This document shows, piece by piece, positions 1 through 56,622 of a stretch of 64,000 nt of DNA. Position 1 is the first letter of the stretch. Each line of letters starts with the position of its first letter. The notes under the pieces were generated by a model, which was not told the origin of the DNA, did not search any database, and saw nothing but the letters and a program-made list of their open reading frames with translations. The stretch comes from Perna viridis (Eukaryota), in the NCBI GenBank assembly GCA_037379345.1, contig CM074519.1, positions 12,874,742 through 12,938,741 on the forward strand, given 5' to 3'. The position numbers and the translations under genes were made by a program.

Positions 1-1090
1 AAATTTAAATATACACATTATATACAATGTCTCCGATGTGTATCTGGTCATCAAATGGACTGCAATCAATTGTAACTCAATACAGGATTGCTATGATAAA
101 TATCTATTTAATGATTTTCATATTACCTTTGTCAATCATTACCTACATATTAATCATCCCAACCACTGTTTTATTGTGACAATGGCCATAATTCAACAAT
201 GGACTAATGAATTTTGGAGGTCAGGGACCCATGAACTCAAGCTTTTGAGAACATATTGTCCATATTATCAGCAGAGATCTATGAGATTAACTTCATCATA
301 CTGGGTGAATTTAACACCAAGGTCAGTGATTCTCCGTATACAATTAACAACTCGAATATAAAATGTCACAGCTACGTGGGTGTAACACTTATATTTCACC
401 AAGAAAAAATCCAACTGACACAGTATTTCACTGACAGATATGTATTTAAAACTATGACTTGAGTGTTAGAGAAACAAATGTCCCTGGGTGTGCTGTAATA
501 TCTCAATACAGAATTATATTAAGCATATCAAAGAAATTTGGGATTTCAGATTTTGTTGAAATAAAAATATGGTTTAGTTCCGAACTCTTTAGACCTCCCA
601 AATGCATGGTATGATTACCCAAATAACAAATAATCTCCAGATGTCAAGACTTTAAATCGAACCCAGTTTAAATTAGTCAATAAATAACCTACCGAAGTCA
701 TGAACAGTTTGGGCTAAAACCAACGAAAGCCATCCCAACCTTTGTTATTCTACACAAAACTTTATAGTAAAATTGCATAGAGATCCATACACTTACACTC
801 AAATTATTGTAGTTCCTAAACCAATAGGGTTATAACTCCCAAAATTATTCCCAACCTTCTGTTTGTGATATGATCATTTTTTGTCCCTTTTTGGACCTTA
901 CGTCATTAAGGTTGTTACTGTGTGGAACCTACTTCAACAATTTCAGAGATGAATACACTTATGCTCAAGTTATTGTCCAAACACCTGAGGACAACAGTGA
1001 CATTGCTATACTGTTACCTGACTGCAATTTTTTTAAGTTCTGATAAAAGCATATTTGAAATCAGAAATGTGTAACTGCATCATTTCTTAC

Positions 1091-1201
1091 TTTTTTCCTG
1101 GCTTCGTCAAACAGAGACATAAGACTTTCCCTGGCAGTCAGAAAAGGGTTACTAGCTGCCAAACTTCTCATGTAATAATAAACAGCATCTAATTTTCTTC
1201 T
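1091..1201 (-). CDS. SMG6: SMG6 coding exon 8; gene continues beyond the window start
   Basis: Boundaries tgtag|AGA...AAA|gtaag. Encodes RRKLDAVYYYMRSLAASNPFLTARESLMSLFDEARKK, closely matching SMG6 as I recall it. Confidence 0.95.
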
Positions 1202-2733
1202 CTACAATGAAAAGGAATGTTCCAATCAAAAACTGTTTTGTTACAAAGACAATGAAAAATGACAATTTTAAAATCTAGACCTTCATACACTAGTAAAACA
1301 CATTCAACAATTTAAATTCACAAATTCATTTACTTCATCTTGCTATCTAATCTGAAAGGATGCAATAGTTTGTACAGTCTATTTGTTTACATCATACCAC
1401 ACAGTCTTCCTGTTTACACTTTTTATATTGATTGATAACTTTCAATTACTTAAATAAATGTACATGTATTACACTTCTGTAGTTCAACTGTAATGAAGTA
1501 TCACTTGTATTGAAGTTCGATTTCTTTTTGTACTGGTGAAGTTTTCTTGCTATTATCAGTCTACATGAATTGTTTAACTTAAGTTTGACATCTGTATAGA
1601 TCCATTTTGAGTGGGAACATCAGTGACACCTTGGGGACATACATGTACACCCTTCTGAAGAAATGAGTATTGATATGCATTTTACTTCTTTTGAAATCTT
1701 TTAATGAATTTTTTGGCCCTGTGTTTACCGTTATCTCTGTAAGTAATTACTATTTTCATAAAGGTTATACAGTGGTGTATTTGATGTGTTTCACCATATC
1801 TGTTCCGTTTTCTGTAATATGCTATAAATGACAAAATTATTTTTGTCAAATATTTACTTTCCATTTATACATGTAAATCATCAATTTAATTCATTGTCAC
1901 AGCTAGCCTAAATTATAGAGACAGTGAAATATGTATTGGCCATCATGGGTCAATATCATTCTAATAGGTCAATATTAAGCAAATCGACCTCATCTAATGT
2001 CAATACATATAGATATTCAAACTTTTGAAAAACAACAAAACAAATTCAGAGTTCCATGGCGAAATTGTTTAATACACTGAAGTGTTGTTTTTGGTATTGT
2101 TTTGGTTCTACTGGAGATTCCTTCCTATCGATCTGTTTTACAATCAATAACAAATACAAGACTTGGTTTAACGCACACATGTCTTGTTTTTTTTTTATGT
2201 TTCAGAGGAATTACAAAAAAAAATTAATTCACAATTGTCCCCAATATTTTAAAATCTGTGATTAAGCTCCAAGTCTTTATTTTATGGTTGGATATTGCAA
2301 GTGATTTTGTTATTTTTTTTTCCTTAAACTGACCCTTACTTTTGTGTTTTGTGAAATATGTGTCTTTTACTTAAAATTGGAAAACTTTGAGATGTGTATT
2401 GATAATACCTTGACTTGCTTATTGGATAACTTTTGGCTTTAGGAACTAATTCTTTACTAAGCAGGAAAATTTTACATCTTTCAGGAATTTTGTTTTACAA
2501 ACTAGGAAACATCCTTATTTCAGCAAAAATTAAAGGCAAAACAATATCACTGATTGCTGTTTACAAACTTACAAAAAGAAATATAAAACATCAACCACAA
2601 AGCAGATACATAATTTACATACTATCAGTATATAACAGAAGAGAAAGAAATCACAGAACAAAACAAAACAGTAGTGATTTTGAAGTAGACAATATTACCT
2701 ATCAAACAAAACAGATAATTCTTTTTCACTTAC

Positions 2734-2812
2734 GGTATATAACGCCAATATAGCTAACTGGTTATATGGTCTACCATTCTTTGGTGCCAATGTCTGGGCT
2801 TTAGTGTACCAA
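2734..2812 (-). CDS. SMG6: SMG6 coding exon 7
   Basis: Boundaries tttag|T...ACC|gtaagt. Encodes WYTKAQTLAPKNGRPYNQLAILALYT, containing the conserved PxNGxPYNQLA motif of SMG5/6/7. Confidence 0.95.
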
Positions 2813-3246
2813 CTAAAATACAGCAAACTTATTAAGAAGGTGTCCATGCAAATATCAGGCAATAACTCATCTATATCATATCAAAAATACATCCTTTCTC
2901 AAAGTCGAATGTTAGTTTTTGATTAACTGCAACGTTTAAAGAAAATACATGTAAATTACATTGAAAGCATTTAAATTTATTGAAAAAGGGAGATACATGT
3001 AGCTATATCATTTTGTGCAAAGTTTGGTTGCTTCCTTAGGGAACTTTAAAATAATTTTCTGAGCCTTCCATTGTTGATTAAAAAAAATGTACTATTGGAC
3101 ATACATATGATATAAACATTACATTGGAACAAAAAATTCTGTGAAATAAAATTTACCATGTGCCATATATATAGTATATTACAGGAATTGTCTTGTTTCT
3201 AAATGGACAGTCTCTTAGAAACAACAAAATTAAAAATATCATTCAT

Positions 3247-3807
3247 ACTATACTCGGCGTCACATAAATAACATACTGTTAAAATTTGAATAAAAATATT
3301 TTCTGCGACTTTATTGACACCTACCGTCGTTTAAATTGTCTTAAATGACTTGCTCATTCGTTTAGCCAAACGGCTTCTCCCTAAAGATTGAATCGTTAAA
3401 TTCCGGTCAGATTTTAATTCTCGGTGCCAATATTTACATTGTAAAAAGTCGGCCATATTTACAGTGATCGGGTTGCTAGGAGATGTTGGTTTACGTTTAA
3501 ATGGTTTGTCCAAAAACCGAAGAACCCAAAATGCATTTCGGCGTTATTTCGGATATCTTGGATTTATTTTATGCGAACAACGTACAATACCGAGAAGTTG
3601 ATCAAGCAGACGATTGTCACCGGAGTTCGACGGGAACTTACGAACTTCGTTTGTAAACAAGTCGTCCCGTAAAAACCAACATGGCGGATATTAGTATGGG
3701 ATTTTCCCGTAAGGATTTGTTACGCATGATTTAAGCTAATAAGCGACTTGTTTAGGGAGAAGCTGTTTGGCTAAACGAATGAGCAAGTCATGTAAGACAA
3801 TTTAAAC
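3247..3807. mobile_element. Truncated, rearranged copy of the same MITE family in an SMG6 intron
   Basis: 3247 to ~3745 is collinear and highly similar to 12831 to ~13330. The right end is replaced by an inverted copy (3751-3807) of 3329-3385. Confidence 0.8.
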
Positions 3808-3961
3808 TTTACAACTTTGTCATCATGCAATAAAAGGCTTCGATGAGCAAAACTACATGTAGGTACATATGTCCTACCTGAAACAGTTCAGGTAAGTGTA
3901 GACTCTATATTTATCTTGACTAGAAAATAACATTAAAGTAGAAGTTGGTAACAATACATAC

Positions 3962-4185
3962 TTTCTTGCTCTGCCATAGTTAATTTTTCCCGAGTCATTC
4001 ATCTGTTCCCTGTATCTAGCTATATCTCCCAGACAGATCATATTTCTCTGAGTACTTAGTATTGCAAGCTTCACAAAGCGATGGATATTTTCTGGAGGTA
4101 GACTACTGGTGTCAAGAAAGTCATCTAATTTGTAGCAATATTTTTGTTGAAGTTTCTGGATCAATTTCTCATAAAAGGCTGTACC
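3962..4185 (-). CDS. SMG6: SMG6 coding exon 6 (EST1 domain)
   Basis: Encodes GTAFYEKLIQKLQ...MICLGDIARYREQMNDSGKINYGRAR. LGDIARYREQ is characteristic of SMG6. Confidence 0.93.
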
Positions 4186-4425
4186 CTACAAAGAATGTTT
4201 AGAAATGTAAATAACTGCAATGTAAAGCATTGGTTTGTGTCTTACCACTTCTGCTTTATCATAGAATATTGTTCCATACAATGTGCAGCAAGAGACCTCA
4301 AGTTGAAACTGCAATCTAAATATCAAATAGTGTGTAAAAAGAATAAAAGTTTCAGTCAAACCAATCAAACCAGTGGAAAGCACAAAAATAGAAATCATAA
4401 AAAATATTTTTAAATATTAAAATAC

Positions 4426-4603
4426 CTCATCTAATATTTGAGTCAGCCTGGGTTTGGCATCTTCTTCTTCATTCATGTGTTTCCTGAAGACTTCTATTAC
4501 TTGATAGAACACAGCCTTCCACAGAAGTTGATCAACATTATGCCTTGTGGACAGATCAATATCCCATAGGATGAGGTATTCATATTTCTTCAGCAATTCT
4601 TGT
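4426..4603 (-). CDS. SMG6: SMG6 coding exon 5 (EST1 domain)
   Basis: Encodes QELLKKYEYLILWDIDLSTRHNVDQLLWKAVFYQVIEVFRK, which matches the SMG6 NVDQxLWKxxFYQVIE motif. AG/GT boundaries, phase 2/0. Absent from the ORF track. Confidence 0.92.
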
Positions 4604-5239
4604 CTAAGACAAATAATGCAATAACAAACATAACTAAATAGTACAAAAAATTTAATTATAATAATACAATACCTGTAATGAAAAAAAATACAGTGAGTAA
4701 TATAATTTACTTCAAAGAATGAAATTAGTCTTCCCTTGATTAAATGACAATCACCTGATAAACTTCCTTAAGGAGATAACTGCGCAATTAACAGATTTAA
4801 ACTTTCCATCAAACTTAAATTGAAATACCTAAGAAGTGATAGAAAGTTTAAATCTCCTTGTTCATAGTTCAGTTTACTACCAACAACATTTCATCAGGTA
4901 AAGGATATTAAATCAAGGGGAGACCAACTCTATTCCCTGAAGTAATAACACAAATTATTGATCAACAATTCTAGGCAATAGCCAAAAGGAATCGCCAAAA
5001 AGGAAAGTCTGTATAACTAATCGCAATGTCAAGGTAAAGGAAGTTTGAAATCACCACAAATGTTCTGACTAGATACAGGCATTTCTAATGGAACTGGTGG
5101 GTTAAACCAGGTTTAGTAGCATGCAAAAGAGTAACAATATAAAAATGAAATGTGGGGAAAATGTGCTTTCTTCATAAAGTGCTAGTTTTTTTTATTCAAA
5201 AACAAAAGTCATATAAGTCCTTTAAAATACATGTAATAC

Positions 5240-5362
5240 CTTTTTGAGTCTAATAAAGACATACTTTCTCCATTAAGTCGTCTGGCTACCAGCTTTCCAA
5301 GTTCATTATCTAAAGCAAGACATTCATTCAACATCTTACCAAACATGTCTTCTCTTTGTTTT
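5240..5362 (-). CDS. SMG6: SMG6 coding exon 4 (start of EST1/TPR-like domain)
   Basis: Boundaries ttcag|A...AG|gtatta, phase 2/2. Encodes KQREDMFGKMLNECLALDNELGKLVARRLNGESMSLLDSK. Confidence 0.8.
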
Positions 5363-6638
5363 CTGAAGATACAACAATAAACATACTTCATTGTATATAT
5401 CAAGCATACATGTATCCTGGGAATCTTAAGTTCATACAAGCTAAACATTGTCTTCTTTCAAAATGTGATACAAATGTATATGACTGTTAGAATTTAATCA
5501 AATAAATATAACCTCTATATCATGTTGAAATATGTTTCTTCCCATATGCACAATTATAACTTCTTAGTCTCCTGAACTGTTATCTTACATTTACATCAAT
5601 TACATGTAGGAAAATATATTTGAAAATCTAATTTTGTGATTTTGTGACCCAATGTCTAAAATTTTAATCCATGGAGTATATAGGAATCACCTTGTCATTC
5701 CAATCTCATCTTTGTCCCTTGTAAGCACTATTTGATTTTTTTCATCGTTTTTAAATTTCAATAGTGTCTAAATTTAAATTTATTCATCGATACCTCTTTA
5801 TTTTTTTAAGGGACTCAGACCTTTTTGAACTAATTTTTAGATGCATTTAATTGTGTAATATTTTTTCCACAGTGGTCACATTTAAAAGAGGGATGGTTAT
5901 AATCATGCCAAAGTACTTTAACATTTTTTGCGCCTGTCCCAAAGAAGGAATTTCTGGCCTCTATATGTATTGCTTTGTTTTCACTTACAGTTTACTTTTA
6001 TGCTGTTGGAGTATATATCGGTAGGGCCAACTATTTTGCTGTACCTATGTATAATGTTGTTTTGGGACCAGCTGCAGCCTGCCTTGGGATGTGAGGGTTA
6101 TATTATTGTTCATTGAAGACACATTGGTGGCCTTGAGGTTGTTGTCTTTTTGACATATTCACCATATCCATTCTCATTATATGTATCAAATCTTATTTCC
6201 TTTTGTGATATTCAACATTAAAGTACACATGTACAACATGGAGACTTGCAGACTTTTACTCAAGTCAAAAGAAAAGAAGTTCTAGTCAACTTTTGACCCC
6301 TTAAATCCATTCAAATAGGGTCATAACCCTCATAACTAATCCTAGTTGCACTATTGAGGTATGGAACCTTGTTGTACAATGTACATGAACAATTTCATGG
6401 AAGTACATTCACTTTTACACAAGTAACTGAGCCGAAGTCATATCTAAAAAAAAAATTTTGTGGACGTATAATAAAAGAAAATAGAGTTACAAATATTTCT
6501 CCTTAAATTAAAATGTACCACCACTTAAGATTTTTCACAGCTTATTTTTTTCCATCCATGTATTTTTTTACCAGAAACAAAATATAAATGTATATGGTAA
6601 TACTTAGATAATAACAGATTATTATCTATATTACATAC

Positions 6639-9130
6639 CCTCTAACCATCTCAAGATAGCCAGGTGGTGGTGGATACCCTCCATAAAAAAACCCATGAGG
6701 GGGTATCATCTGAGGTTGAGGTGGTGGAGGTCCCTGGTACATCCCCTGGTCTGGAAACTGTGGGGGGCCGTAAAACTGTCCATACCCCTGGAAAGGTGGA
6801 GTATGTGGATGAGCAGGCGGTGACGGTGAATCAATTCCTTGATCAAAGAATTTTAAGTTAGAAGAACCTTGGACTACAATAGGTTTGTTAGGATTCTTTG
6901 GATCAAATAACTGCTTCTGTCCAGTTAATGGTCGTGTGTTTCCCACAGCTTCTTTAGGTTTTGGTGAATGTGCCTTTTCTTTTTGAATTTTTTCCTCTAT
7001 GTGATCCTCAGAGGTATGGACATTTGGAGGCAGCTTTATTAAACCTCCTCCATGTGTCTTATCATTCTTCACATTTTTTTCATCTCTTTCCTTCTCACTA
7101 TTATTTCTGCTACGATTCCCATACTTATCACTAGATCCATGAACTTCCTTATCATAAGGTCTATCTCTTTTCCATTCATCTGAATCTTTACCTCGCTTGG
7201 GATCTCTGCCTTGATCTCCATGTTTATAACCATGGTGATGAATTTCTTGACGTCTGTCCTGCTTCCAGTCTTTTCTATGTTCATCAGATTCTCTTCTTAT
7301 TCTTTGACCTCTGCCCCCATCAGACTGCCTGGAACCATGGTAATGACCTACTGAATCTTGACCTTTGCGATAATCATCTCTTCCCCAATCCTCTCTACTT
7401 CTATTTCTCCCACCCCTACCTCTGCCAATATTTCTTCCTGAGTCTCTTTCAGAAGACCCTTTATTTTTGTCATCTTTTTTGGTTATGCCTTCAGGTTCCT
7501 CACTGTTACCACGACTACCAACTGTCTGTCCATCTCTGGTGTCATTCCCAGCATGTTGACGTCTTCCCCTTCCTCTTCCACGTCCAATGCTTTTACCATG
7601 AGGCAAGTTATCATTGTGGGGCATTTCAACCTGTCGTTTGTCACCACCAACTGTAACTTTGATGTTCAAACTATCTGGATCATTAAGCCTTTCTCTGCTA
7701 GTTCCTCCTTTCATACTTGAATTACTATTCTGCCTCCTGGGTCTCCTGTAAGACCCATACATATCATCATCACCAAGATTACTTCTAACACTATGTACAC
7801 TTGAAACACTAGAATCCCTACTCCTTCTTCCCCCTGACTCCCTTGACTGCCTTCTCCTATGATGACCTTTAGATCCATCACTCATCCTTCTTTCCCTCCT
7901 TCCACAACCACGGTAATAATCATCCATGTCCTGTCGATTGTCTTTGTTCCATCTTCTGTCCCATGATCCAGCATTGTAATTTGTATTCTGTCCATCAAGA
8001 GCTCTTCCTTGATATCTGTCTCCTGAATTTCTTTTGTTTCTTCTTGGAAAAGTACCTGCACTTTGATAATTTTTCTGTTCATTATTTTCTTTTCTATTTG
8101 AAATCTTATCCAACATATCATGAGAACCAGCCGGTTTAATATTATCCCAGCTTGGGGGCATGTCCTGTGGATCATCTGGAGATACCACTTGGGAAGCCCA
8201 ATCTCCCCAGTCAGAACTTTTGGGCTCTTTTTCCCAATCTATTCCCTCCTCCTGCTTTTCTAAATATTCTTTTAGTTTCTGTGTTTCATTATGAACCTGT
8301 TTAGCCATTTCCATTTCTACCTCTTTGTCCCAAACCAGTATTCTTTCAGTAGTTTCATCATCAATACTGAGGTCACTGCTGGTACTGACATCACTACTAA
8401 AGCTGCCAGTTCTCTGACGTCTCATGTTAGAAGAATACCTTTTAGATCCTGCTTTACCTCCACCACCCTTTGGAGGTTTCTGGGTCAAATTTTCTGCTGT
8501 CAACTTTGAGCCTTGATTATTGCGTCTCTCAAAGACCATGGTCTGTATAACATTATCATTATCAGATGCCTCTTCATCTGTTATATTATGTATATCTGGT
8601 TTGGAGCCTCTTAGATTTCCAAGTCTTCTGTTTGTTCGCTGAGGTTTTGGACTTAACGAGAACCGCTCATTCAAACTACTTGTCATTTGATTGTTTTTAT
8701 TACTACGAACATCTCTATAATCACCTTTACTCTCATGTGATCCCTGATGTTTTATCTTGTTTTTTACATTCGTATCAGATTTTGACCTTGAGGCTTGTTG
8801 GTTATGATCATGTCCAGCCACTTCTCCTGATTTTGATCTTGATACTTGTTTTGAGTCACCATCTTTAGAAACAGTTACTTTAATGTTCATAATGTCATCT
8901 GGTTTTATATCAACTCTTTTTACAGACATGAGTGATTCCTCGTCAATGTAAAGAGAGTTTTTTTCTACTTCACCAGACGACTCTGTTTCTTCATTCTCTT
9001 TTTGTTGCATTTCCAGTATCTTGCCCTTCGGAACATATCTTTGCATTTCTGGTCTTTTCCTTCTTGATTTTGAAGCATCATGTTTTTCATTAACGTGTAA
9101 TTCCTTCAGACTGAATGAAGCATCATCAAC
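6639..9130 (-). CDS. SMG6: SMG6 coding exon 3 (2492 bp), low-complexity N-terminal region with EJC-binding motif 2
   Basis: Boundaries tatag|GTT...GG|gtatgt. Contains most of the 806-aa ORF plus an upstream in-frame extension with RRKRPEMQRYVPK. R/G/S/D-rich; includes GGLIKLP and QLFDPKNPNKP motifs similar to SMG6. Confidence 0.9.
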
Positions 9131-10114
9131 CTATAATGAAGCTACATTTATAACAATGCTTCATAATCATATATTTCCACAATAAAGAACTTGAAACAGC
9201 AGATATCTTTATGCTGTATTTCTAAGGCAATAATTCTTTAATGAAGACTGTTGTGTTATTGCTAGTAGTATGTTATCAACAAAATCAAAACAGTTTCTGA
9301 AGAAGTTATCTAAGGATGCTTGTAACCAAATTTTTGAAGTGAAAAAAAAAAAAAAATTAACTTTACTTTTCAGTTTTCAAGTCATGTAATTTTTTTTAGA
9401 AACTTAGACATGTGCAAAGTACTTAATCCTGTGGAAAAAAATTAATAAGGGAGATTTCATATATCAAAATGAAACTGAACCAAACTCCATTTGTTACAAG
9501 TCCATATTAACAATAAGCTGTATGTTGTACATTTGTATTTTCAATCAAAGCATCATCTAAAATTAATCTTACAATCACTGTCATGTACAATGTATATGAA
9601 GAGCACTATTTTTCTAGAATGTGAGAGCACTCTAAAAAGTCATCTTTTTGACGAACTTATGACCGATTATTAATGAAATGAAAAACCAATGACCAGTGAC
9701 CCAGACATCTGATTCTGTGATTGTGGTTTTGTTATGTAAAATAATGGATGATAGGTTCATGTGAATTTCAGAACTTGAAAATACAAATATAATGCTTTTG
9801 TAAATTTACTTTTGAGTTTTAAATATAAAATTGTGGCTTTGTATCTCATTACAAAAAGCAATACATGTGAAAAACAGAAATGCAAAATAAAAATATTTCA
9901 TAAAAAATATGTACTGATCAGCAGTCAATTTCCGTAAGACACTTTTACAAATCAGTTTGACGGATCGATGACTGATCAGACAATTGATAAATTATAGGTG
10001 TTGGATTGCTATTTTAGTTGCATGGATTAATTCAGGTACTGTACCATTCCATTTCTTGTTGTAGTAACATAATGATGACATGTCTTGTCAAATGCATTAT
10101 AAAATAACATGTAC

Positions 10115-10299
10115 CTCTCTTTCAACACTATTTTCCTTGCTGTTTTCTGTGCTATTTTCCTCTATTTCTTCCTCCCAGTTCTCCCCTTGCTGCCCTCTAA
10201 CATCATCAGCTGTCTCATCTGTTGATGAATGTCTTTGTTTCTGTAAATTAGGAGGCCTATATATCCCTATCTCTGGTCTTTTGAACTTTCTTTGTTTAT
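10115..10299 (-). CDS. SMG6: SMG6 coding exon 2, with EJC-binding motif 1
   Basis: Boundaries tacag|AT...GAG|gtacat. Encodes DKQRKFKRPEIGIYRPP, matching the SMG6/UPF3 EJC-binding motif pattern (RPxxxxYxP). Phases 1 and 0 fit the neighbouring exons. Confidence 0.85.
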
Positions 10300-10926
10300 C
10301 TGTATTATAAAACAAGATAATTTTTTGCCGTGAAGCAGAGTTTGATTTTGTAAGAAGGTACATATGTTTGATGTGACAATGAAAATGACCACCTCGTTTG
10401 ACAAGTCCTTTTATTTCTGAGGCATACAAGGTCATCAAACCTGCTAACAATTCAAGATAGTTTCACAAGTACATGTCCATAAGAAAACATCATTTATGTT
10501 GTGGTTTGCTTAGGCAGCAAAATCGTTTACATGGACATGAAAGTAACAGTCCTGCTGGAAACTTGTTCAGGTGAATAAAAGCAACAGTTCATTAAACAAC
10601 TTTTTTTAGTAACTGCCCATTCCTCTGGTACAAATGTTACAACTTGCATTATTTAGTTGTTCTATTATGATCAATAAAGGTCAACTTGTCCGTGTAGTCC
10701 AGGTGGACAGTGGTCTGTCTCCACAATATGTACTTTTCCCCCCTGACAATGACCATAAGGTGAAAATTTTGGGCCTCGTGTTTTATTACATGTACATTGT
10801 AAGTTTCACGTGTATTTCATTTGAGATTAGTTCCCATTTACCTTTTACATGTAATTGTGCCAACTGTTTGCTTCATTATTATAATATTCTTATTTATGCT
10901 GAACTAAGCCACTTCACAACTTAACA

Positions 10927-11141
10927 GAAAAGCAGAGGACGCTTACCCTACCAGTGCACCTGGTCCATGCTCCCAGTTTTTAGTGGAGTCCTAGTTGCTC
11001 ATTTGCTTTTGAGACTTTGTATGTATGATTTTAGTTACTTTATGTTCTTCGTTGTGTATGTCTGTTTTCCATGTCAGGTCTTTGTCCCTGGATTACATTC
11101 TTTTGATTACCGCTATAACCTTGGTTTTCTTGATTACTCTT
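10927..11141 (+). mobile_element. Short 3'-end copy of the same Penelope-like family in SMG6 intron 1
   Basis: Highly similar to ~16847-17058 (GAAAAGCAGAGGACG...TTACCGCTATAACCTTGG). Confidence 0.8.
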
Positions 11142-12830
11142 GTAAAAAGTAAACATCTCTGTATGTGTAACATCAGACTGTACAGGAAAATTGTTTTACA
11201 TGTTCATTATCTGTGTACTTTAACCCCTTCCCCAGTATAAAATAATTGTTGAAAGGGATAAGCTAGACTTTGAGCCCTGTCAATCTTGTTGTTTTAACTC
11301 TTTGGCAGCAACATTAAGTGCTCAAATCTACACTCAAACATCTTATTTATTTCATTACATGGAAAACAAATACTGAATAACACAGAGTGCATTTCCAAAT
11401 GATTACATTGTATTTGTATAGATCTGGGATATGAAGCATCAATGGACACATACATGTACATGTATGTGTTCCTTTTTTGTTATGAACAACCACATACACA
11501 GGCATTGTACAAAATTATGACTCACCTGATCATTGCTTAATAATTTTCATAATGTTTTGGCAAAACTATAATGATGTTTTAAATTTCATTGCAAACTCAG
11601 CCCACATGTAACTGTTAGTTAAGTTAAAATAGACAATAGTTCAATCAATCTTAATGAAAAAAGGTCAGGGTACTCACTCCTCCCAAAAAATCGCAAGTCC
11701 AAGGACTCCCTTGTCACAAAAATGACAAGTCCTGTAAGGAATTCAGAGGATCACAAGAAAAGTGAATGGTCTTATGTTGTAAGTTTGTACTGCTAATGGT
11801 AGTGGACAGATTTTTTTAGCATCTTTGCAACATGTACAGATAACATGTGTTTGTTCACCTTCTTCCACTTTCCCCAACCACAGAAACGTTTTCAGACATT
11901 ATACACAGAATATTCTAATTTTCTTTTGTGTGCAGGCTGTACAAGAACTAAATTCTTCCTCTGCGTTGTCCAAACGAGGACCAGGCGGCGATCTTGTTAA
12001 ATCATCTTCAGCCGGTCATTTTCGACCACCGAAAAAAGCTTCGAGTATACTCGAAACATTTCTGATTTTAAGTATGTTTAAAATTAAAGTTATATATACC
12101 CTCATTTTAATGATTAGTCGTGTTAAACAATTTTGATCTTTAATGGATGCCAACCAATATTTACTTCAGTATACATAAAAACAAACCCTTTGACAAACCT
12201 AGCACATATATAGTTATCTCCAATATGTGTCTGGTCATAAAATGGATTTCAATTCATTTTAACGCAATACTGGACAGTTAGGAAGTATTAATCAACGCTA
12301 AATAATTATTTTACGATTCCTTTTTCTCAAGTTCTATTTGCCAATCGTTAATACCACACGCTAATTGTCTGAGCCGCTTTTTGGGGGGGGGGCCATCGAC
12401 TTGCATTAAAGTTGGACAAATTAAAAATCAAACCGACTTCATGTTGAGTAATCATATTGCTACTGTTGATTTAGGCAATTGGATTGAGAATTTTCACAAG
12501 TCCCCTGGACTCCCCTGTTGCAATTTTCAAGGGTCCCCAATGAATTTTGAGAGTCAGGGACCTGGAAGCTTGGGTCCCCAGAGAACCCTAGGGTGTTACA
12601 ACATCAGCAGGCAAACTTGTTTAAAACCACTACAAATTTCAAAACTGGAGCATCACTTGTGCTTGATAATAAAATAAACCTTGAAGGTATATTGTATTTG
12701 TAGTAACATTAGGAAAGTTTACATAGTTTTATGATATACATTGGAACATGACAAAAAGAAAACATTAACATACAAAGACAATTACACTTTTATTTAAGAA
12801 CAATACAAAACAAAGTATTTATTATGGAGC

Positions 12831-13475
12831 ACTATACTCGGGGTCACATAAATAAGATACTGTTAAAATTTGAATAAACATATTGTCTACGACTTTATTG
12901 ACACCTACCGTCGTTTAAATTGTCTTAAATGGCTTGCTCATACATTTAGCCAAACGGCTTCTCCCTAAACATTGAATCGTTAAATTCCGGTGAGATTTTA
13001 ATTCTCAGTCCCAATATTTACATTATCAAAAGTTGGCCATGTTTACAGTGATCGGCTTGCTAAGAGATGTTGTTTACGTTTAAATGGTTTGTCCAAAAAC
13101 CGAAGAACCCAGAATGCATTTCGGCGCTAATTTGGATATCTCAGATTTATTCTACGCAAACATCATACAACACCGAGAAGTTGATCAAGCAGACGATTGT
13201 CACCGGAGTTCGACGGGAACTTACGAACTTCCTTTGTAAACAAATCTTCCCGTAGAAACCAACATGGCGGATATTAGTATAGGATTTTCCTGTAAGGATT
13301 TGTTACGCACGATTTCAGCCAATGAACGACTCTTTGCCTTTGGAACTATCACGTCATGCATATGTGCGAACTTTCTTCAGATTAAATAAAAGAGAGACAA
13401 CTCTAGCCGTAAGTCCCGACAGTTTAAAAAATAGAGTTTCAAATCGAAAATGTGCTATGTGACTTCGAGTATAGT
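12831..13475. mobile_element. MITE-like non-autonomous DNA transposon (intact copy) in SMG6 intron 1
   Basis: 20-bp terminal inverted repeats (ACTATACTCGGGGTCACATA / TATGTGACTTCGAGTATAGT, 2 mismatches). No transposase. A second copy lies at 3247. Confidence 0.8.
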
Positions 13476-13756
13476 CATAACAAGCACTGGTCAGGCCCAG
13501 GGTAGTAAAAAAAATCATTACAATCTACTGATTATTTCAGATGAAATATACAAGATATAATCAGTAAAGAGTGGAAGACTTTCACATGCTTTTTTTGTCA
13601 TGAAAGAGACAATTTTGGCTCAAATTTTAATGAATAGACATAAATGTTATTGTTTGTACTTTCATTTTCATGCTATCTTTACAAAGCCATCTCGTAAATT
13701 CAACATAATAAGCCTTATTTCTCCATACACGGTAGTTCAATGTATACAGTTTATAC

Positions 13757-13871
13757 CATTGCTCTTCGAGCTTTCCTTCTGGTGGTGAACGGACTTAAGT
13801 TTTGTCCTATAATCCACAATGTGTTCCAATTCTTCGTATGTGATTTTAACGGTTTTCAATTTGGCAGCCAT
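13757..13871 (-). CDS. SMG6: SMG6/EST1A coding exon 1 (start codon)
   Basis: Translates MAAKLKTVKITYEELEHIVDYRTKLKSVHHQKESSKSN, resembling the vertebrate SMG6 N-terminus (MAEGLERVRISASELRGIL, from memory). Ends G|GTATAA in phase 1, matching the phase-1 acceptor of the next exon. Confidence 0.75.
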
Positions 13872-13887
13872 TTTCAACTGCCGCCAT
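13846..13887 (-). promoter_or_regulatory. Out-of-frame upstream ORF overlapping the SMG6 start; YY1-like ATGGCGGC motif
   Basis: An ATG 16 nt upstream of the main ATG encodes MAAVENGCQIENR*. Whether it lies in the transcript is unknown. Confidence 0.4.
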
Positions 13888-14088
13888 ATCGAATCTCCAC
13901 ACTAAAGAGTTAGTGTGGGATCATCCAAACGAAAGGACGAGTACGAATGGGAACGGAAAATTGGTATGGAAAATAACAACGCGATATTGTTGGGGAAAAA
14001 CATCAGATTTCAACCTGATATGAGCTTCCAAAAACATTTTTCAACAACAGAAATTGATCAAAATTTTTTAAAAATTATAATTTTATAG

Positions 14089-14715
14089 GGTCTAAAATGT
14101 GTAACCCGTACCCGTACCCGTACCAACTTTTCCCCGTACCCAAATAATGGTTAGCCAAAATATTCTTTCTTACGGATATGGATATTAAGAACTGCATGAG
14201 GTGTGGAAAGTCCGTTTCAATTCACGTCTAATCACGAAAATGATGTATATTTTTCTAATGTTTCTTGTTTGATCGGTTTTCTGAAGCCAAAAGGTCTAAA
14301 ATTTGTAACCGGAAGTTGCCATACCAAACTAATTATTGACTATTTCTCACTTTCCTATCCAAATTTTACGGTTTTCTAAAATCATTAAGGAGTTAAAACT
14401 TTACTCTAAGACTTTTGATAAAGTTTTGAAAGATTTAATATTGTTTTAAAAATTAAGTGATTGAATTTGAATTCCGTAGCGTACCTAACGACAATCCCCG
14501 TACCAGCAAAGAATGGATACGATCTTATCCAGAATGAAAAACTAAGTCTCATATACAGAGTCAGATGCGATTTTGATTTTGATTTATCGTCAATGAAAAT
14601 TTTGATAATATCATGATGTTCCATGCATGTCAAATATGCATTCAAATTGTACAGATAACAAAAATAACGGACTTTGATTTTGGGTACGGGAATTTCGGGT
14701 TACACATTTTAGACC
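14089..14715. mobile_element. MITE-like element upstream of the SMG6 start
   Basis: Perfect 20-bp inverted repeats GGTCTAAAATGTGTAACCCG (14089-14108 / 14696-14715). Subterminal CCCGTA repeats and a third degenerate TIR copy near 14292. Confidence 0.75.
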
Positions 14716-15429
14716 ATACCTTATAATTTGTATAAAGACGGGCGTGTCGGGCTTACAGGTCCCCCAACAAGATTTGGATTTTTGGGGACACGATCTCTTG
14801 ATTTTTACAAGGAGTTATGCTATTTATAAATCCTTGATTTTTCACAAATTTATTTATATTAACGCCTCTAAAACCCGAAGTCGCGGACCGCGCTTTTGTA
14901 GTACAATTACCGGGTGGATCCGTAGACTCTAATGTTCATTATGTGATCAAAAGGGTCATGATCATGATGTAAAAATAATTAGGGAAATCAACCATAAAGA
15001 CAGTCCGGCTGTACCAAGAGGCTAGTTAATTATATATTTGGTTAAATGTTAACCATTAACCTCTAAAAGACTACAATTGACTATATCAAACTAAACTTTT
15101 AAAAGCTAGATTTCAATTCAATGCAAAGGAAACAGAAGTAATGAGGCTTCATCGTGTTGGAAACTAAATGTAGACGGGAATGAAATTAAGCGAGGGGACA
15201 AATTAATTTACATAGGAAAACCCTTAATTACTAAATGATTCCACACAGAAAGATATATAAAAACAGATTGACAAATGCGAGAACAGAATTTTACGAGCTG
15301 AGAAACATTAGGTAATAAAAACAGTACATCAGGAAAAACAAAGTAAAACTGTTTAACAGCATCGTAAAATAAGGTCAAGTATTTGGCGACAAGAGTAAAT
15401 TCAAGTTATTTCTACTTATTAGCTGATTT

Positions 15430-17055
15430 CTCTGTCAGAGTGGTTAAAGGCCGTGAGGTCATTAATTTTGAAACGAATGAAAGTTTTAAGTAGGTCAATT
15501 GAGTGCCAAGGCTACATCAGTTTTCAAAGACCCCGATGTAGCAAAAAATATTGTCTACTATACATGACAAATATGTTGTCTTACCAACAGACAAAGCCCA
15601 AAACAACATTGTTTTTGTATGCAAAACGTTTTACATCCAATGTTTATTATCATAGGTAGACGTAGAAAATAATAGCAGTGATATGACCTATACTGCTACC
15701 ACACTCTCCAAAGAAAAGATTGTGGAAAACCATAAATCTTTGCTATCCTCTTTTGGTCTCTCTACCAAGGACGATGATTGTGATTTACCGTCTATGTACT
15801 GGATTCATAAACTCCACCAAAATCCATACAAACAACGTTTCACAGCTGGATCTGCACAATGTACCACCAAACCTCTTTCAAAACTTTTAACTTCTATACT
15901 CACAACTGTCAAAGTGGGTCTGCAGTCCTAACACCGCATTCGTTACTACCGTAGTGGTATTAATTCAATGTGGATCCTGAAAAATTCGAAAGATCTTTTG
16001 GAGACAATCAGTTCAAGACTATTATCTGAATATAATAGCATTAAAACGTATGGTTTTTCTATCCCCATACTCAAACCTCGACTTAAAACATTATACATCG
16101 TTGTTTTTCCAAAAAAGATGGTACACCTAGATACAGATATATAGTTCTTGGTAGAGATTCCGAATACTTTGCAAGAAATAATTCCAAGAACAAATTGTGC
16201 TCCTTTACTTGCTGAATATTCCTTCACTCTTATAAGGCTGACTTTATACCTGATCTGATCCGAAAGAAAGAATATCGTTTGGCTAGATCCTTTAATCTCA
16301 GTTTCTGCAATGTAGATGATGTATTATCTTTAACAATCCTAATTTCGGGGATTTGATACATCGCATCTATCACAAATAACTTGAGATAAAGGATACTACA
16401 GACACTGTGAAGTCAGCCTCATATCTTGACCTACACTTAGAAATCGATGGTAAAGGAAAACTATTGACCAAACTTTACGACAAACGTGATGACTTTTCAT
16501 TCAGAATTGTCAACTTTCCTTTCATCTGTGGCAACATCTCTTCAGCACCTGCGTATGGAGTGTTCATATCACAACTCATACGTTATGCCAGAGCTTGCCG
16601 AAACTACACAGACTTTTTGTATCGCGCTAGAACTCTAACAAATAGGCTTCTGGAACAGGGTTATGTTGCTACAAGATTGAAGTCACCACTACAAAAGTTT
16701 TTTGGTCATCACCATGAACTCGTGGATCGTTATGGTGTATCCATCTGCACCATGAAAACTAATTTATTCAACGTGTCATAGTTTTCCTTTCCTCGTTTGT
16801 CCACCCTGGACTTGACTTTTTATGAGCAACTCGGTGGGTGTTTCTGGAAAAGCAGAGGACGTTTACCCTAACGGTGCACCTGATCAATGCTCCCAGTTTC
16901 TAGTGGAGTCCAAGTTCCTCATTTGCTTTTGTTACTTTGTATGTATGATTTTAGTTACTTTATGTTCTTTGCTGTGTATGTCTGTTTTCCATGTCTGGTC
17001 TTTGTCCCTGGATTACATATTTTATTACCGCTATAACCTTGGTTCCCTGAATTAC
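15430..17055 (+). mobile_element. Decayed, 5'-truncated Penelope-like retroelement (RT pseudogene plus 3' region)
   Basis: Frameshifted fragments in order: LPTDKAQNNIVFVCK, LPSMYWIHKLHQNPYKQRF, MWILKNSKDLL, TNCAPLLA, VDDVLS, YLDL...KLYDKRDDFSFRIVNFPF...PAYGVFISQLIRYARAC. These are typical PLE RT motifs. No C-terminal GIY-YIG is seen. Confidence 0.8.
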
Positions 17056-17340
17056 TATTTCTGTCTGTTGTATTTCTGAAAACAAACTGGTAAGTTATGA
17101 AACATACTATAAAAGTAACAACTCGATATGATGATTACTATACAGAAAAGAAAGTAAATATTGAATATATGAAAAACATATTCTAGTGGTGGTGGTATTA
17201 AAACGTAAATGTCACAGAGACGTAATTTTTTTCCATAAAACAATAAGAACAAATATTTATAAATCTGTATATGAACTCTTATTTATATCATGTATTTTTT
17301 GCGTATGAAAATAATTTGTTTAAATAAATATATAAATGTA

Positions 17341-17865
17341 AACACTTTTAATATCACGGTGGACCCTGCATTGTGACAGACCCAGAGTTATGTGACTCCG
17401 GTAATGCCAGTACTACGAAGAAGGTTGAACTTACAAGTGGTAGGTGCTTGCGCATGATCTAATTCTTTTTAGAACCATTGTGTCACAAACGTTTTATTAG
17501 TATGCATGCACTTTACATCAGCAGTGAGTGCTAAAATAAAGGTGCCAAAAATTTGCCCTCGATATAGTTGCATTTGAAAATTCGACATAGAAGAGCTCTT
17601 CTGTGTGTTTGCTTGATCCAAATGAGCACAGAGTACTAACACTCAGGATGTAGGAATGAATTATCCTTTAAAATAAAAATAAGTGTCAGGAAAACACATG
17701 ATATCACCAAATGTAACATGTATTGCAAAATGTAAACAGAATAAAAACCAAGGAGGAGACAATCAAATCAGTTTTGTAAGCAGATGTAAGGAAAATTGTT
17801 ATAGCCGTCTTTTCTACGGTACGACTAATTTGCATATTGACAACAGTTTCGGTACGTTTCATTTG
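17341..17865 (+). repeat. Old, diverged, internally deleted copy of the 1180-bp array unit
   Basis: Collinear anchors shared with the unit: AACACTTTT, TACTACGAA, TGCTTGA, TTTAAAATAAAA, AACATGTA, CAAAATGTAAA, GAATAAAAACCA, ATCAAATCA, and a block identical at 50/53 positions (17810-17862). Confidence 0.8.
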
Positions 17866-17866
17866 A

Positions 17867-18251
17867 TTTGATATTCAATTAGTTAACAAGTTCAGACGTA
17901 CTGTTATATTGTTCTTAATTTCGTTATTTTGTAAAACGGTTTGGTTGAGCCGTAAAGTAAAAAAGTTTGAAAAGAAATGTGGGACAAGTAAAACTATTTA
18001 TATGAAATTTTTAAATGAACTTAAAGTTCGTATTACTGCTGATTTTTATAGATTTGATAGACTACGATTTAATGAATATTGGAGACAGACTGATCTTTTC
18101 TGTAATGTCAATGATGAAGAATTGAAAATTATTTTTTGTTGATTCTATTAATTGTACAATGTCCTATCTGTGATATATTGATTTTATGAACTTGTTGTAC
18201 AATCGATATTATGATTTGTGGAATAAAATGTTTGAAATATAAAAAAAAAAA
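17867..18251 (+). mobile_element. 5'-truncated Tx1/L1-clade-like non-LTR retrotransposon 3' end with poly(A)
   Basis: Open frame ...ILFLISLFCKTVWLSRK...FLNELKVRITADF...FNEYW...LFCNV..EELKIIFC* resembles Tx1-type ORF2 C-termini. It is followed by a short 3' UTR, AATAAA (~18222) and an A-run (18240-18251). No TSD found. Confidence 0.6.
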
Positions 18252-19450
18252 GAGTATGGCTGAGGTTAAACGACTTCATCATAGCAAACCCAACACTTTT
18301 CTCTATATCTAGGACCACGGGGGGTTCCTCTCTCTAATTTAAAGAATACTATATTCTTACAGACAGATCGGTGAAGCTTGTTTCGCAACTAATTATACTA
18401 CGAACAAGCCTTAATTTGCAAGAATACGGTGTTAGCGCCTCAACAATTTTTTTATCTGTGAACTGTGTTACTAACGGAAGAAAAATGCACATAAACTTGA
18501 TCAGAGGAGTGAATGCGTAAATTCCGCTAGGTTTTCCTCCTCGACGGCGTTCTAGTTACTTTGATGTTTTAACATAAATATATTCTACTGAAAGAGTCAT
18601 TAAGTAGTGTTACCATTATTCAGTCACAAAAATCTGTCTATTTGATGTTTATTCTGTGTCTTGAAACTAACAGCACAGTTAAAGTGAGCACGTGCCTATG
18701 CTTTGAGTACAGAAAAGGTCACTATTTTGTCTTAAACCCTACAGGCCTCCGAATTTTGTATACCTCTATAGTTTATAAGTTATTTGCGACTGCTTAAAGA
18801 ATATTTTAATAGATATTTTTGCTTTTTATACTAGCGTGTCTCTGCTTGACCTACATAAGTATAAAGTACTGAATAAAATGAAAACTACTCGGGACACAAG
18901 AATAAACTGCCTTTTAAAATAAAACTACGCGTAAAGAAAACAGCTGATGGAACATGTACTACAAAATGTAAAAACGAATAAAAACCACAACGTAGATCAT
19001 CAAATCAAAGTAAGCACACGCTGGAAATGCCGTTTTAGTCATATTTAAATGCCATCAATTTCGTAGACACATTTTCTATGGTACGACTAATTTGCATATT
19101 GACAATAGTGTCGGTACGTTTCATATACGTATCCAAATTATTATGTACAGTACTGTTTAAGGAATTATAAAATGCAAAAATGAAGCGAAGCTGAAATGAA
19201 AGTATGGCCAAACGTTTGATGCAAAAGTGGCCAAAATTAACAAGGATTGGACTAATGCAAGGTCCGTTACGGGTAAATATGGTGCAATCATTAATTTTGC
19301 ACTAGAATTGACTTGAACAGACTTCCAGATAGATTAATATTCTTGGTTACATAAGATTGTCTAACTAAAATTGCCAGTGAATATTATTACTCATTTGACT
19401 TAGCCATTGTGATGCAGACGAGCTGCTCAAAGAGTATGGCTGAGGTTAAA
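18249..19450 (+). ncRNA. Putative rod-like, possibly circular, structured RNA encoded by each array unit (first unit shown)
   Basis: About 12 nested helices share an axis near 18780-18805, with many + strand G-U pairs and a hairpin across the unit junction (19394-19450). Manual pairing only; no expression data. Confidence 0.55.
19072..19124. promoter_or_regulatory. Conserved 53-nt block with a perfect octamer ATTTGCAT (19090-19097), present in every unit
   Basis: 50/53 identical to 17810-17862, whereas the flanks are much more diverged. The octamer lies between GTACGAC and GTCGGTAC arms. Confidence 0.5.
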
Positions 19451-22400
19451 CGACTTCATCATAGCAAACCCAACACTTTTCTCTATATCTAGGACCACGG
19501 GGGGTTCCTCTCTCTAATTTAAAGAATACTATATTCTTACAGACAGATCGATGAAGCTTGTTTCGCAACTAATTATACTACGAACAAGCCTTAATTTGCA
19601 AGAATACGGTGTTAGCGCCTCAACAATTTTTTTATCTGTGAACTGTGTTACTAACGGAAGAAAAATGCACATAAACTTGATCAGAGGAGTGAATGCGTAA
19701 ATTCCGCTAGGTTTTCCTCCTCGACGGCGTTCTAGTTACTTTGATGTTTTAACATAAATATATTCTACTGAAAGAGTCATTAAGTAGTGTTACCATTATT
19801 CAGTCACAAAAATCTGTCTATTTGATGTTTATTCTGTGTCTTGAAACTAACAGCACAGTTAAAGTGAGCACGTGCCTATGCTTTGAGTACAGAAAAGGTC
19901 ACTATTTTGTCTTAAACCCTACAGGCCTCCGAATTTTGTATACCTCTATAGTTTATAAGTTATTTGCGACTGCTTAAAGAATATTTTAATAGATATTTTT
20001 GCTTTTTATACTAGCGTGTCTCTGCTTGACCTACATAAGTATAAAGTACTGAATAAAATGAAAACTACTCGGGACACAAGAATAAACTGCCTTTTAAAAT
20101 AAAACTACGCGTAAAGAAAACAGCTGATGGAACATGTACTACAAAATGTAAAAACGAATAAAAACCACAACGTAGATCATCAAATCAAAGTAAGCACACG
20201 CTGGAAATGCCGTTTTAGTCATATTTAAATGCCATCAATTTCGTAGACACATTTTCTATGGTACGACTAATTTGCATATTGACAATAGTGTCGGTACGTT
20301 TCATATACGTATCCAAATTATTATGTACAGTACTGTTTAAGGAATTATAAAATGCAAAAATGAAGCGAAGCTGAAATGAAAGTATGGCCAAACGTTTGAT
20401 GCAAAAGTGGCCAAAATTAACAAGGATTGGACTAATGCAAGGTCCGTTACGGGTAAATATGGTGCAATCATTAATTTTGCACTAGAATTGACTTGAACAG
20501 ACTTCCAGATAGATTAATATTCTTGGTTACATAAGATTGTCTAACTAAAATTGCCAGTGAATATTATTACTCATTTGACTTAGCCATTGTGATGCAGACG
20601 AGCTGCTCAAAGAGTATGGCTGAGGTTAAACGACTTCATCATAGCAAACCCAACACTTTTCTCTATATCTAGGACCACGGGGGGTTCCTCTCTCTAATTT
20701 AAAGAATACTATATTCTTACAGACAGATCGGTGAAGCTTGTTTCGCAACTAATTATACTACGAACAAGCCTTAATTTGCAAGAATACGGTGTTAGCGCCT
20801 CAACAATTTTTTTATCTGTGAACTGTGTTACTAACGGAAGAAAAATGCACATAAACTTGATCAGAGGAGTGAATGCGTAAATTCCGCTAGGTTTTCCTCC
20901 TCGACGGCGTTCTAGTTACTTTGATGTTTTAACATAAATATATTCTACTGAAAGAGTCATTAAGTAGTGTTACCATTATTCAGTCACAAAAATCTGTCTA
21001 TTTGATGTTTATTCTGTGTCTTGAAACTAACAGCACAGTTAAAGTGAGCACGTGCCTATGCTTTGAGTACAGAAAAGGTCACTATTTTGTCTTAAACCCT
21101 ACAGGCCTCCGAATTTTGTATACCTCTATAGTTTATAAGTTATTTGCGACTGCTTAACGAATACTTTAATAGATATTTTTGCTTTTTATACTAGCGTGTC
21201 TCTGCTTGACCTACATAAGTATAAAGTACTGAATAAAATGAAAACTACTCGGGACACAAGAATAAACTGCCTTTTAAAATAAAACTACGCGTAAAGAAAA
21301 CAGCTGATGGAACATGTACTACAAAATGTAAAAACGAATAAAAACCACAACGTAGACCATCAAATCAAAGTAAGCACAGGCTGGAAATGCCGTTTTAGTC
21401 ATATTTAAATGCCATCAATTTCGTAGACACATTTTCTATGGTACGACTAATTTGCATATTGACAATAGTGTCGGTACGTTTCATATACGTATCCAAATTA
21501 TTATGTACAGTACTGTTTAAGGAATTATAAAATGCAAAAATGAAGCGAAGCTGAAATGAAAGTATGGCCAAACGTTTGATGCAAAAGTGGCCAAAATTAA
21601 CAAGGATTGGACTAATGCAAGGTCCGTTATGGGTAAATATGGTGCAATCATTAATTTTGCACTAGAATTGACTTGAACAGACTTCCAGATAGATTAATAT
21701 TCTTGGTTACATAAGATTGTCTAACTAAAATTGCCAGTGAATATTATTATTCATTTGACTTAGCCATTGTGATGCAGACGAGCTGCTCAAAGAGTATGGC
21801 TGAGGTTAAACGACTTCATCATAGCAAACCCAACACTTTTCTCTATATCTAGGACCACGGGGGGTTCCTCTCTCTAATTTAAAGAATACTATATTCTTAC
21901 AGACAGATCGGTGAAGCTTGTTTCGCAACTAATTATACTACGAACAAGCCTTAATTTGCAAGAATACGGTGTTAGCGCCTCAACAATTTTTTTATCTGTG
22001 AACTGTGTTACTAACGGAAGAAAAATGCACATAAACTTGATCAGAGGAGTGAATGCGTAAATTCCGCTAGGTTTTCCTCCTCGACGGCGTTCTAGTTACT
22101 TTGATGTTTTAACATAAATATATTCTACTGAAAGAGTCATTAAGTAGTGTTACCATTATTCAGTCACAAAAATCTGTCTATTTGATGTTTATTCTGTGTC
22201 TTGAAACTAACAGCACAGTTAAAGTGAGCACGTGCCTATGCTTTGAGTACAGAAAAGGTCACTATTTTGTCTTAAACCCTACAGGCCTCCGAATTTTGTA
22301 TACCTCTATAGTTTATAAGTTATTTGCGACTGCTTAACGAATACTTTAATAGATATGTTTGCTTTTTATACTAGCGTGTCTCTGCTTGACCTACATAAGT

Positions 22401-54978: not shown

Positions 54979-55445
54979 GGTCTCAGTATCGTATTAATTT
55001 TCCCATAGACTTCTATAGTGAAGTGCATATTTTTAGGATTTTTTAAAAAATATGTAAATTGATTCAATAAAACTTTCACTTATGTAGCATTTCTAAGGAC
55101 ATGTGAAAAAATAATTTCCCGCAAAGAAAATAGGGTGAGTCCACGAAGATCGGACAGAAAAGTAGTCTCGAACTATAAATAGCCATTTTCCCTACTTTCA
55201 CTTTCGTTTTGCACTCACCAAACCAACCTTTTCAGTGGAACATTTTTATGATATTATGTTAGATTTTCTTTTAAAAAAGTTCTTCATCTTACGGTGTGAT
55301 GTTTGCTCTATTTTATAAGTCATTGTTCATATCTTTTGACAAAATATTAGTTTGTAGAGAGGCAAAAAGAAAATGCACTATATTTTTATAACATCCATGT
55401 TTTGACGTACACCTGCTCAGGGATATGCAATACGATACTGGTACC
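54979..55445. mobile_element. 467-bp MITE-like insertion in an array unit (copy 1)
   Basis: 17-bp TIRs GGTCTCAGTATCGTATT / AATACGATACTGGTACC (2 mismatches). Flanks AATTAT / TATTAT indicate a 5-6 bp target duplication relative to empty units. Confidence 0.9.
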
Positions 55446-56622
55446 TATTATACTACGAACAAGAGTTAATTTGCAAGAATACGGTGTTAGCGCCTCAACA
55501 TCTGTGAACTGTGTTACTAACGGAAGAAAAATGCACATAAAGTTGATCAGAGGAGTGAATGCGTAAATTCCGCTAGGTTTTCCTCCTCGACGGCGTTCTA
55601 GTTACTTTGATGTTTTAACATAAATATATTCTACTGAAAGAGTCATTAAGTAGTGTTACCATTATTCAGTCACAAAAATCTGTCTATTTGATGTTTATTC
55701 TGTGTCTTGAAACTAACAGCACAGTTAAAGTGAGCACGTGCCTATGCTTTGAGTACAGAAAAGGTCACTATTTTGTCTTAAACCCTACAGGCCTCCGAAT
55801 TTTGTATACCTCTATAGTTTATAAGTTATTTGCGACTGCTTAACGAATACTTTAATAGATATTTTTGCTTTTTATACTAGCGTGTCTCTGCTTGACCTAC
55901 ATAAGTATAAAGTACTGAATAAAATGAAAACTACTCGGGACACAAGAATAAACTGCCTTTTAAAATAAAACTACGCGTAAAGAAAACAGCTGATGGAACA
56001 TGTACTACAAAATGTAAAAACGAATAAAAACCACAACGTAGACCATCAAATCAAAGTAAGCACACGCTGGAAATGCCGTTTTAGTCATATTTAAATGCCA
56101 TCAATTTCGTAGACACATTTTCTATGGTACGACTAATTTGCATATTGACAATAGTGTCGGTACGTTTCATATACGTATCCAAATTATTATGTACAGTACT
56201 GTTTAAGGAATTATAAAATGCAAAAATGAAGCGAAGCTGAAATGAAAGTATGGCCAAACGTTTGATGCAAAAGTGGCCAAAATTAACAAGGATTGGACTA
56301 ATGCAAGGTCCGTTATGGGTAAATATGGTGCAATCATTAATTTTGCACTAGAATTGACTTGAACAGACTTCCAGATAGATTAATATTCTTGGTTACATAA
56401 GATTGTCTAACTAAAATTGCCAGTGAATATTATTATTCATTTGACTTAGCCATTGTGATGCAGACGAGCTGCTCAAAGAGTATGGCTGAGGTTAAACGAC
56501 TTCATCATAGCAAACCCAACACTTTTCTCTATATTTAGGACCACGGGAGGTTCCTTTCTCTAATTTAAAGAATACTATATTCTTACAGACAGATCGGTGA
56601 AGCTTGTTTCGCAACTAATTAT

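Follow-up and report, generated by a model that had tools for sequence, protein, structure and literature searches.

The locus raises the question of why a 53-nt block should be kept almost unchanged between a tandem array and an old copy at the array's edge, and what kind of element, if any, the block represents. The window, that is, the whole stretch of DNA analyzed, comprises 64,000 nt of the Perna viridis contig CM074519.1, and all positions refer to it. A sequence-only reading of this DNA had seen in the block either an internal snRNA-type promoter or an RNA signal. The features on which the comparison depends are listed first; where no strand is given here or below, none is assigned.

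18252 to 64000: tandem array of 1180-bp units, with 38 unit starts, reaching beyond the end of the window.
19072 to 19124: the 53-nt block as it occurs in the first array unit (unit positions 821-873); all 38 units carry the same sequence.
17810 to 17862: old copy of the block with 3 substitutions, aligned with 19072-19124.
18834 to 19015: left homologous segment, matching 17601-17781 at ~72-75% identity; the alignment contains several indels of lengths not divisible by three.
17601 to 17781: old copy of the left homologous segment.

Inspection of the array reveals units that are 98.7-100% identical to unit 1 (38 unit starts, 18252-64000). Alignment of the block with its old copy bears out the identity of 50 of 53 positions reported before, with differences at 19079, 19106 and 19110, and a perfect octamer is indeed present both in the array (19090-19097) and in the old copy (17828-17835). 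The near-invariance ascribed to the block likewise holds across all 38 array units. Elsewhere in positions 1-17800, the best ungapped match to the block reaches 28 of 53. Identity in the block exceeds that in the other gap-free columns of the homologous segment (50/53 versus 139/194, Fisher p 2e-4); a best 53-column window equally good was obtained in 133 of 20,000 permutations, and a 26-nt identical run arose in 728 of 20,000. That is to say, the excess of identity over the remaining homology is real and moderate. Within the array the block holds none of the 45 variable sites (p 0.27), an invariance that is not unusual by itself.

The flanks had been described as heavily diverged. This is accurate for the left flank only, which is nonetheless homologous: 18834-19015 aligns with 17601-17781 at a score of 120, which none of 300 shuffles equalled. 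To the right of the block, where 101 and 88 of 300 shuffles scored as well as the real sequences, homology could not be detected, because the right flank of the old copy is a different, inserted sequence. Homology further to the left than these segments was not detected by the shuffle test. The comparison rests on two block versions, one array type and one old copy, such that selection is indistinguishable from recent common descent. Searches for the exact 26-mer in prokaryotic genomes gave 0 matches, the right half of the unit had no match among plasmids, and a full-text literature search with four block words returned matches through one 11-mer only, all unrelated by title and abstract.

The surroundings of the array contain a gene and several repeats. 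Exons of SMG6/EST1A occupy 6626-10462 on the minus strand, where the long exon (6626-9130) gives a 56-57% match with Mytilus edulis and M. coruscus, which marks the DNA as probably that of a mytilid mussel other than these two; the array starts ~8 kb upstream of the SMG6 coding sequence. A decayed retrotransposon with a reverse-transcriptase-like C-terminus (15656-17059, plus strand) adjoins the old copy on the left, and its 3' piece recurs at 10927-11141. We take this element to be Penelope/Naiad-like; Pfam support for it was not found. A dispersed 500-bp repeat with 92% identity between its copies (3247-3807 and 12831-13331) and an element at 14065-14736 that has inverted ends together with short repeats of CGTACC are probably MITEs.

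Two further features define the edges of the block.

19044 to 19071: 28-nt insertion present only in the array, forming the block's left edge and resembling a local duplication.
17863 to 18251, plus strand: poly(A)-tailed LINE-like 3' fragment, forming the right edge of the block in the old copy.

The size of 53 nt is not an element boundary; it is set by an indel on one side and an insertion junction on the other. The LINE-like fragment has a 91-codon open frame (17867-18142) that opens 5 nt past the block's end in the old copy, AATAAA at 18222-18227, and A11 at 18241-18251 that abuts unit position 1 directly. An ORF end, a polyadenylation signal and a poly(A) tail, the features sought in an L1/Tx1 3' fragment, are thus all present at 17863-18251, and only this one of the 19 stop-free runs of at least 91 codons in 1-18250 has AATAAA and an A run after it. 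We presume that the 91-codon peptide is like the tail of L1/Tx1 ORF2 proteins. It found no match in longer proteins, Pfam, PDB sequences, NCBIfam, phages or prokaryotic genomes; its nearest Atlas cluster (0.94) consists of unnamed eukaryotic proteins, with recognition below the reliable level, and a poor single-sequence model (pLDDT 58) led to generic helical matches only in fold searches. Tx1 elements occur in bivalves, according to the accessible part of PMC10294476. The 3' junction of the fragment with the array corresponds to lower-strand cleavage between a T and a G where the unit ends, and the old copy lacks ~305 bp (unit positions 874 to ~1178).

The open frame also bears on the age of the insertion. 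In simulations that applied substitutions without indels, the frame survived in 54% of runs at 3% change, 29% at 6%, 7% at 14% and 1% at 28%. An open frame is therefore likely at 3-6% change and unlikely once divergence reaches the 28% seen in the left segment, which suggests that the insertion is younger than the old duplication; it could date back as far as the three differences in the block. Since the 53 nt are a surviving remnant, conservation may extend further to the right. The sequence-only reading overlooked the insertion junction at the block's right edge in the old copy.

Within these limits, two motifs can be recognized.

19087 to 19098: 12-nt extended octamer, a probable POU/Oct site (octamer proper 19090-19097; old copy 17825-17836).
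19080 to 19118, plus strand: GGTACG twice in direct orientation, once on each side of the octamer (19080-19085 and 19113-19118); the old copy retains both.

The octamer motif is stronger than had been appreciated, as the extended 12-nt site has a chance expectation of ~5e-4 per unit. The two GGTACG copies are the only ones in the unit, and the three block differences fall outside the 12-mer and both GGTACG words, a weak indication with a probability of ~0.16 by chance. A word beside the octamer, which we take to be Sox-like by its consensus, is broken in the old copy. A second octamer with one mismatch and a similar left flank (18411-18421) sits in the variable half of the unit. Binding of the octamer by Oct-1/POU factors is established, as summarized in the available sections of PMC9652321.

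To place the 12-mer among mobile elements, the curated bivalve library files of PMC10294476 were scanned over approximately the first 400 nt of each record, which corresponds to their 5' ends. The DNA-transposon file (354,229 characters) contains the 12-mer 9 times against an expectation of 0.16; the LINE file (377,213 characters) does not contain it. The matches belong to Academ, Sola2, Tc1/mariner and other elements, and some are not independent, given that related Academ families are included; the GGTACG flank accompanies 0 of the 9. The octamer was not found in the SINE file, block-specific words were absent from 12 of the 33 supplementary files as well as from files 24 and 25, and KolobokP supplements contained none besides two unrelated 10-mer matches. 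On sequence comparison, the extended octamer is a recurrent motif of bivalve transposon 5' regions. Its frequency in the 5' ends of bivalve DNA transposons means that it does not point to snRNA genes.

Our preferred reading, held tentatively and at somewhat less than even confidence, is that the block works at the DNA level as a cis-element. It would most likely be a POU (Oct) site accompanied by two GGTACG words, lying in the less variable half of the unit (18834-19431), with limits that were set by an indel and by a LINE-like insertion with deletion. In this role the block would serve Pol II transcription as a promoter or enhancer module, like those located close to the 5' ends of DNA transposons in bivalves; the unit itself may derive from such a transposon. 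It would be bounded on the left by the array-only 28-nt insertion and on the right by a 5'-truncated LINE-like copy that would have inserted into a T/G site where the unit ends, with loss of ~305 bp; we infer that this insertion and deletion stranded the block in the edge copy. The locus would then be an ordinary kilobase satellite with a transposon-type promoter motif, and it would record how a retro-insertion freezes an array edge. At least 38 tandem POU sites positioned ~8 kb from the SMG6 coding sequence could, if bound, affect local transcription. A TIR DNA transposon or MITE was rejected as the identity of the unit, which has no terminal inverted repeats or target duplication and whose longest close inverted match is an AT-rich 16 nt. 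A Helitron was rejected as well, with no short GC-rich hairpin before any of the 5 CTAG sites in the unit; perfect stems of at least 6 bp number one in the whole unit.

The main rival to this cis-element reading is that the block is a neutral stub left over from the array's former left edge. Homogenization would have reached left to the 28-nt indel, the LINE-like insertion and deletion would have severed 53 nt, and drift would have supplied the 3 changes, with the octamer inside by coincidence or as a dead inheritance; an old gene-conversion tract is included here. A very recent gene-conversion tract, which had been named as the alternative to conservation, can be excluded, since the old copy differs at three positions from every one of the 38 units. 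The neutral course of events accounts for the coincidence of both block edges with structural events and for identity strata that rise towards the array (~72%, 94%, 100%). It is also consistent with the 3 of 53 differences (95% interval 1.2-15.7%), which fit an insertion young enough to leave 91 codons open, and with the abundance of kilobase satellites in mytilids, where 20 of the 129 Limnoperna fortunei families in the accessible portion of PMC12818792 measure at least 1 kb. Against it, a random 53-nt stub would cover the 12-mer in only 3.6% of placements, and the block's half of the unit is the less variable one. We consider a purely neutral stub somewhat unlikely, and yet the foremost of the alternatives.

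Variation among the units, which is lower in the half that holds the block, counts in favor of the cis-element reading; it also bears on a different class of explanation, which assigns the array a product.

19125 to 19431: least variable part of the unit, with a diversity of 0.17%, missing from the old copy.
54979 to 55446, plus strand: KolobokP-type solo LTDR, inserted at unit position 140 with a 5-bp target duplication.
56623 to 57090: second KolobokP-type LTDR copy.

The 45 variable sites are distributed as 34 in unit positions 1-582, 5 in 583-873 and 6 in 874-1180, and the contrast between 34 in 1-582 and 11 in 583-1180 was matched by 43 of 5000 random placements after correction for the scan. 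Diversity amounts to 0.59%, 0.41% and 0.17% for the same three intervals, such that 583-873 is not far below 1-582. The bias comes mainly from copies 28-37 (24 versus 6), whose variants are not independent of each other, as compared with 11 versus 7 in copies 0-27. The uneven variation fits either a gene-and-spacer pattern or uneven homogenization. Copies 28-37 (51294-64000) form an older, more variable sub-array with variants mostly in the left half of the unit, and copies 0, 1 and 9 have a distinct haplotype in common. Both LTDR insertions fall in the variable half. The two LTDR copies start with GG, have ~17-bp inverted ends and measure 467-468 bp; they are identical at 465 of 467 positions and lie in adjacent units with a common 9-nt deletion, which indicates a single insertion and tandem duplication afterwards. 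A KolobokP multimer of the (LTDR-INT)n type was rejected, as an LTDR with its 5-bp duplication is found in 2 of 38 units and none at the array's left end, the right end lying beyond the window.

The sequence-only reading had proposed the octamer as the possible distal element of an snRNA-type promoter in each unit. A DNA-level POU-type element remains plausible; the snRNA type finds no support in an Rfam family or in a PSE or SPH. Promoters of the snRNA type require, according to the accessible text of PMC9652321, a PSE that precedes the start by 40-70 bp, and in many cases they also have a distal element between -250 and -170. Consensuses for PSE, SPH and the fly PSEA, as known to us from vertebrates and flies and perhaps not those of a mussel, match the unit no better than shuffles (28, 14 and 27 of 30 as good). 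Among the papers listed in literature searches there was no study of a mollusc PSE, and neither an snRNA gene nor another Rfam family was found in the unit or the window. An snRNA-type promoter is unproven. The sigma-70 promoter scan is inapplicable to an animal.

A related reading has the array as a multicopy gene for an unrecognized small RNA, with the block as distal element and a PSE and transcript in 19125-19431. A transcript running leftward would lie in the most variable half, which is not common to the old copy. The sequence rightward of the block is the least variable of the unit; it contains a TATA-like word (19166) and a hairpin of modest stability (19201-19350, plus strand, z -2.83, 3 of 200 shuffles as stable), and no known RNA. 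This reading would draw on the lowest diversity of the unit, at 874-1180, on the gene-and-spacer pattern of variation, on the hairpin, and on the octamer, whose placement at -250 to -170 (following PMC9652321, as far as its text is available) would put the start at ~19265-19345. Set against these points are the failure of the PSE and SPH consensuses, the Rfam results (no match reaching gathering level anywhere in the window, and none in the unit with E under 0.34), a tRNA scan that returned 0, and the fact that the hairpin is the best of 92 windows scanned and may be due to chance. We judge a gene for such an RNA to be improbable. A broader version, in which the array is either a concerted multicopy small-RNA gene new to molluscs or a selfish unit with its own Oct-dependent promoter, is also doubtful. 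In that version, the promoter would span 18834-19124, with the block as its enhancer core, the product would correspond to 19125-19431, and the old copy would be a paralogue that lost its RNA part through the LINE-like insertion. If real, an RNA of this kind with an Oct promoter would give molluscs a further class of multicopy RNA gene.

Alternatively, a small gene repeated in tandem could contain a 47-nt micro-exon (19067-19113) made up largely of the block. In both copies an AG precedes the block by 5 nt and a GT resembling a splice donor stands at the position of 19114, 2 of the 3 changes are synonymous in one plus-strand frame, and in another the array copy resembles the start of a signal peptide, whose ATG is gone in the old copy. 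Comparable donors, however, arise about once per kb by the splice-site frequencies known to us, the homology of the AG follows from the 28-nt duplication, and a long spliced frame is not apparent, with no protein relatives and no Pfam family. An 88-codon minus-strand frame and a 62-codon plus-strand frame of the old copy had no relatives, and six-frame read-through of the unit and the old copy gave nothing above the Pfam cut-off. A micro-exon is thus very unlikely.

The RNA-level claims fared worst. The side hairpin proposed for the block is no more stable than shuffles (z -0.39, -1.13, +0.78 and -0.05 across both strands of both copies), and one pair of its predicted stem is broken by the substitution at 19110. 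The rod proposed for the unit disappears on circular folding (z +0.23 and +0.45; 12 and 11 of 20 shuffles as stable). A two-copy consensus fold had conservation indices of 0.30 and 0.39 and was equalled by 40 and 19 of 60 column shuffles, and covariation between the two homologous segments was not found. Hammerhead core words are absent from both strands of the unit. Rfam searches at E up to 10 on 1-22000, 18253-19800 and 17550-17950 gave nothing credible. A signal for reverse-transcriptase recognition or cleavage therefore has no structural support in either the block fold or the consensus fold. Newt satellite 2 has an octamer-containing promoter, and the analogy drawn with it and with retrozymes fails on the hammerhead, on unit size and on fold. 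Tandem arrangement and the hammerhead retrozymes of Mytilus (PMC7229834, in its accessible part) would speak for a self-cleavage or reverse-transcriptase recognition signal of a retrozyme-like repeat, but with no hammerhead core word, fold z near zero for block and unit, a consensus fold no better than column shuffles, and 1180 bp instead of 150-450 bp, we hold this to be the least likely identity of all. U7, spliced-leader, miRNA, SECIS, LTR and tyrosine-recombinase readings were dismissed by eye, their defining features being absent.

Comparison with known systems places the cis-element reading in context. Metazoan retrozymes are described in the accessible portion of PMC7229834 as 150-450-bp monomers with type I hammerheads; the array resembles newt satellite 2 and non-LTR retrozymes in being a head-to-tail tandem repeat in an animal genome, and differs in having a unit that is several times longer, with neither hammerhead nor stable fold. 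An snRNA-type promoter, with its DSE octamer and PSE (PMC9652321, sections available), shares the perfect octamer, in contrast to which the unit has no recognized PSE-like match to vertebrate or fly consensuses and no snRNA gene. The 468-bp inserts match KolobokP LTDRs (PMC9587614) in length, ends and the word at position 24; unlike the multimers of that family, they are solo and confined to 2 of 38 units. As a satellite, the array is akin to the kilobase satellites of Limnoperna fortunei, which in the accessible part of PMC12818792 are AT-rich, low-divergence tandem units of 1-3 kb, whereas none is listed there at 1180 bp in a table that carries no sequences and was compared by size. The edge of the array is comparable to an L1-mediated deletion, for which T/G cleavage is recorded in 14 of 90 cases in the available text of PMC7058536. 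The target here consists of three T rather than four and the element is unnamed; the truncated poly(A) insert, the 3' junction at a T/G site and the loss of upstream target without target duplication are alike. Bivalve DNA transposons differ from the unit, which has a GGTACG flank and neither terminal inverted repeats nor transposase remains, while Academ, Sola2 and Tc1/mariner elements (PMC10294476) carry the same 12-13-nt octamer with its flanks.
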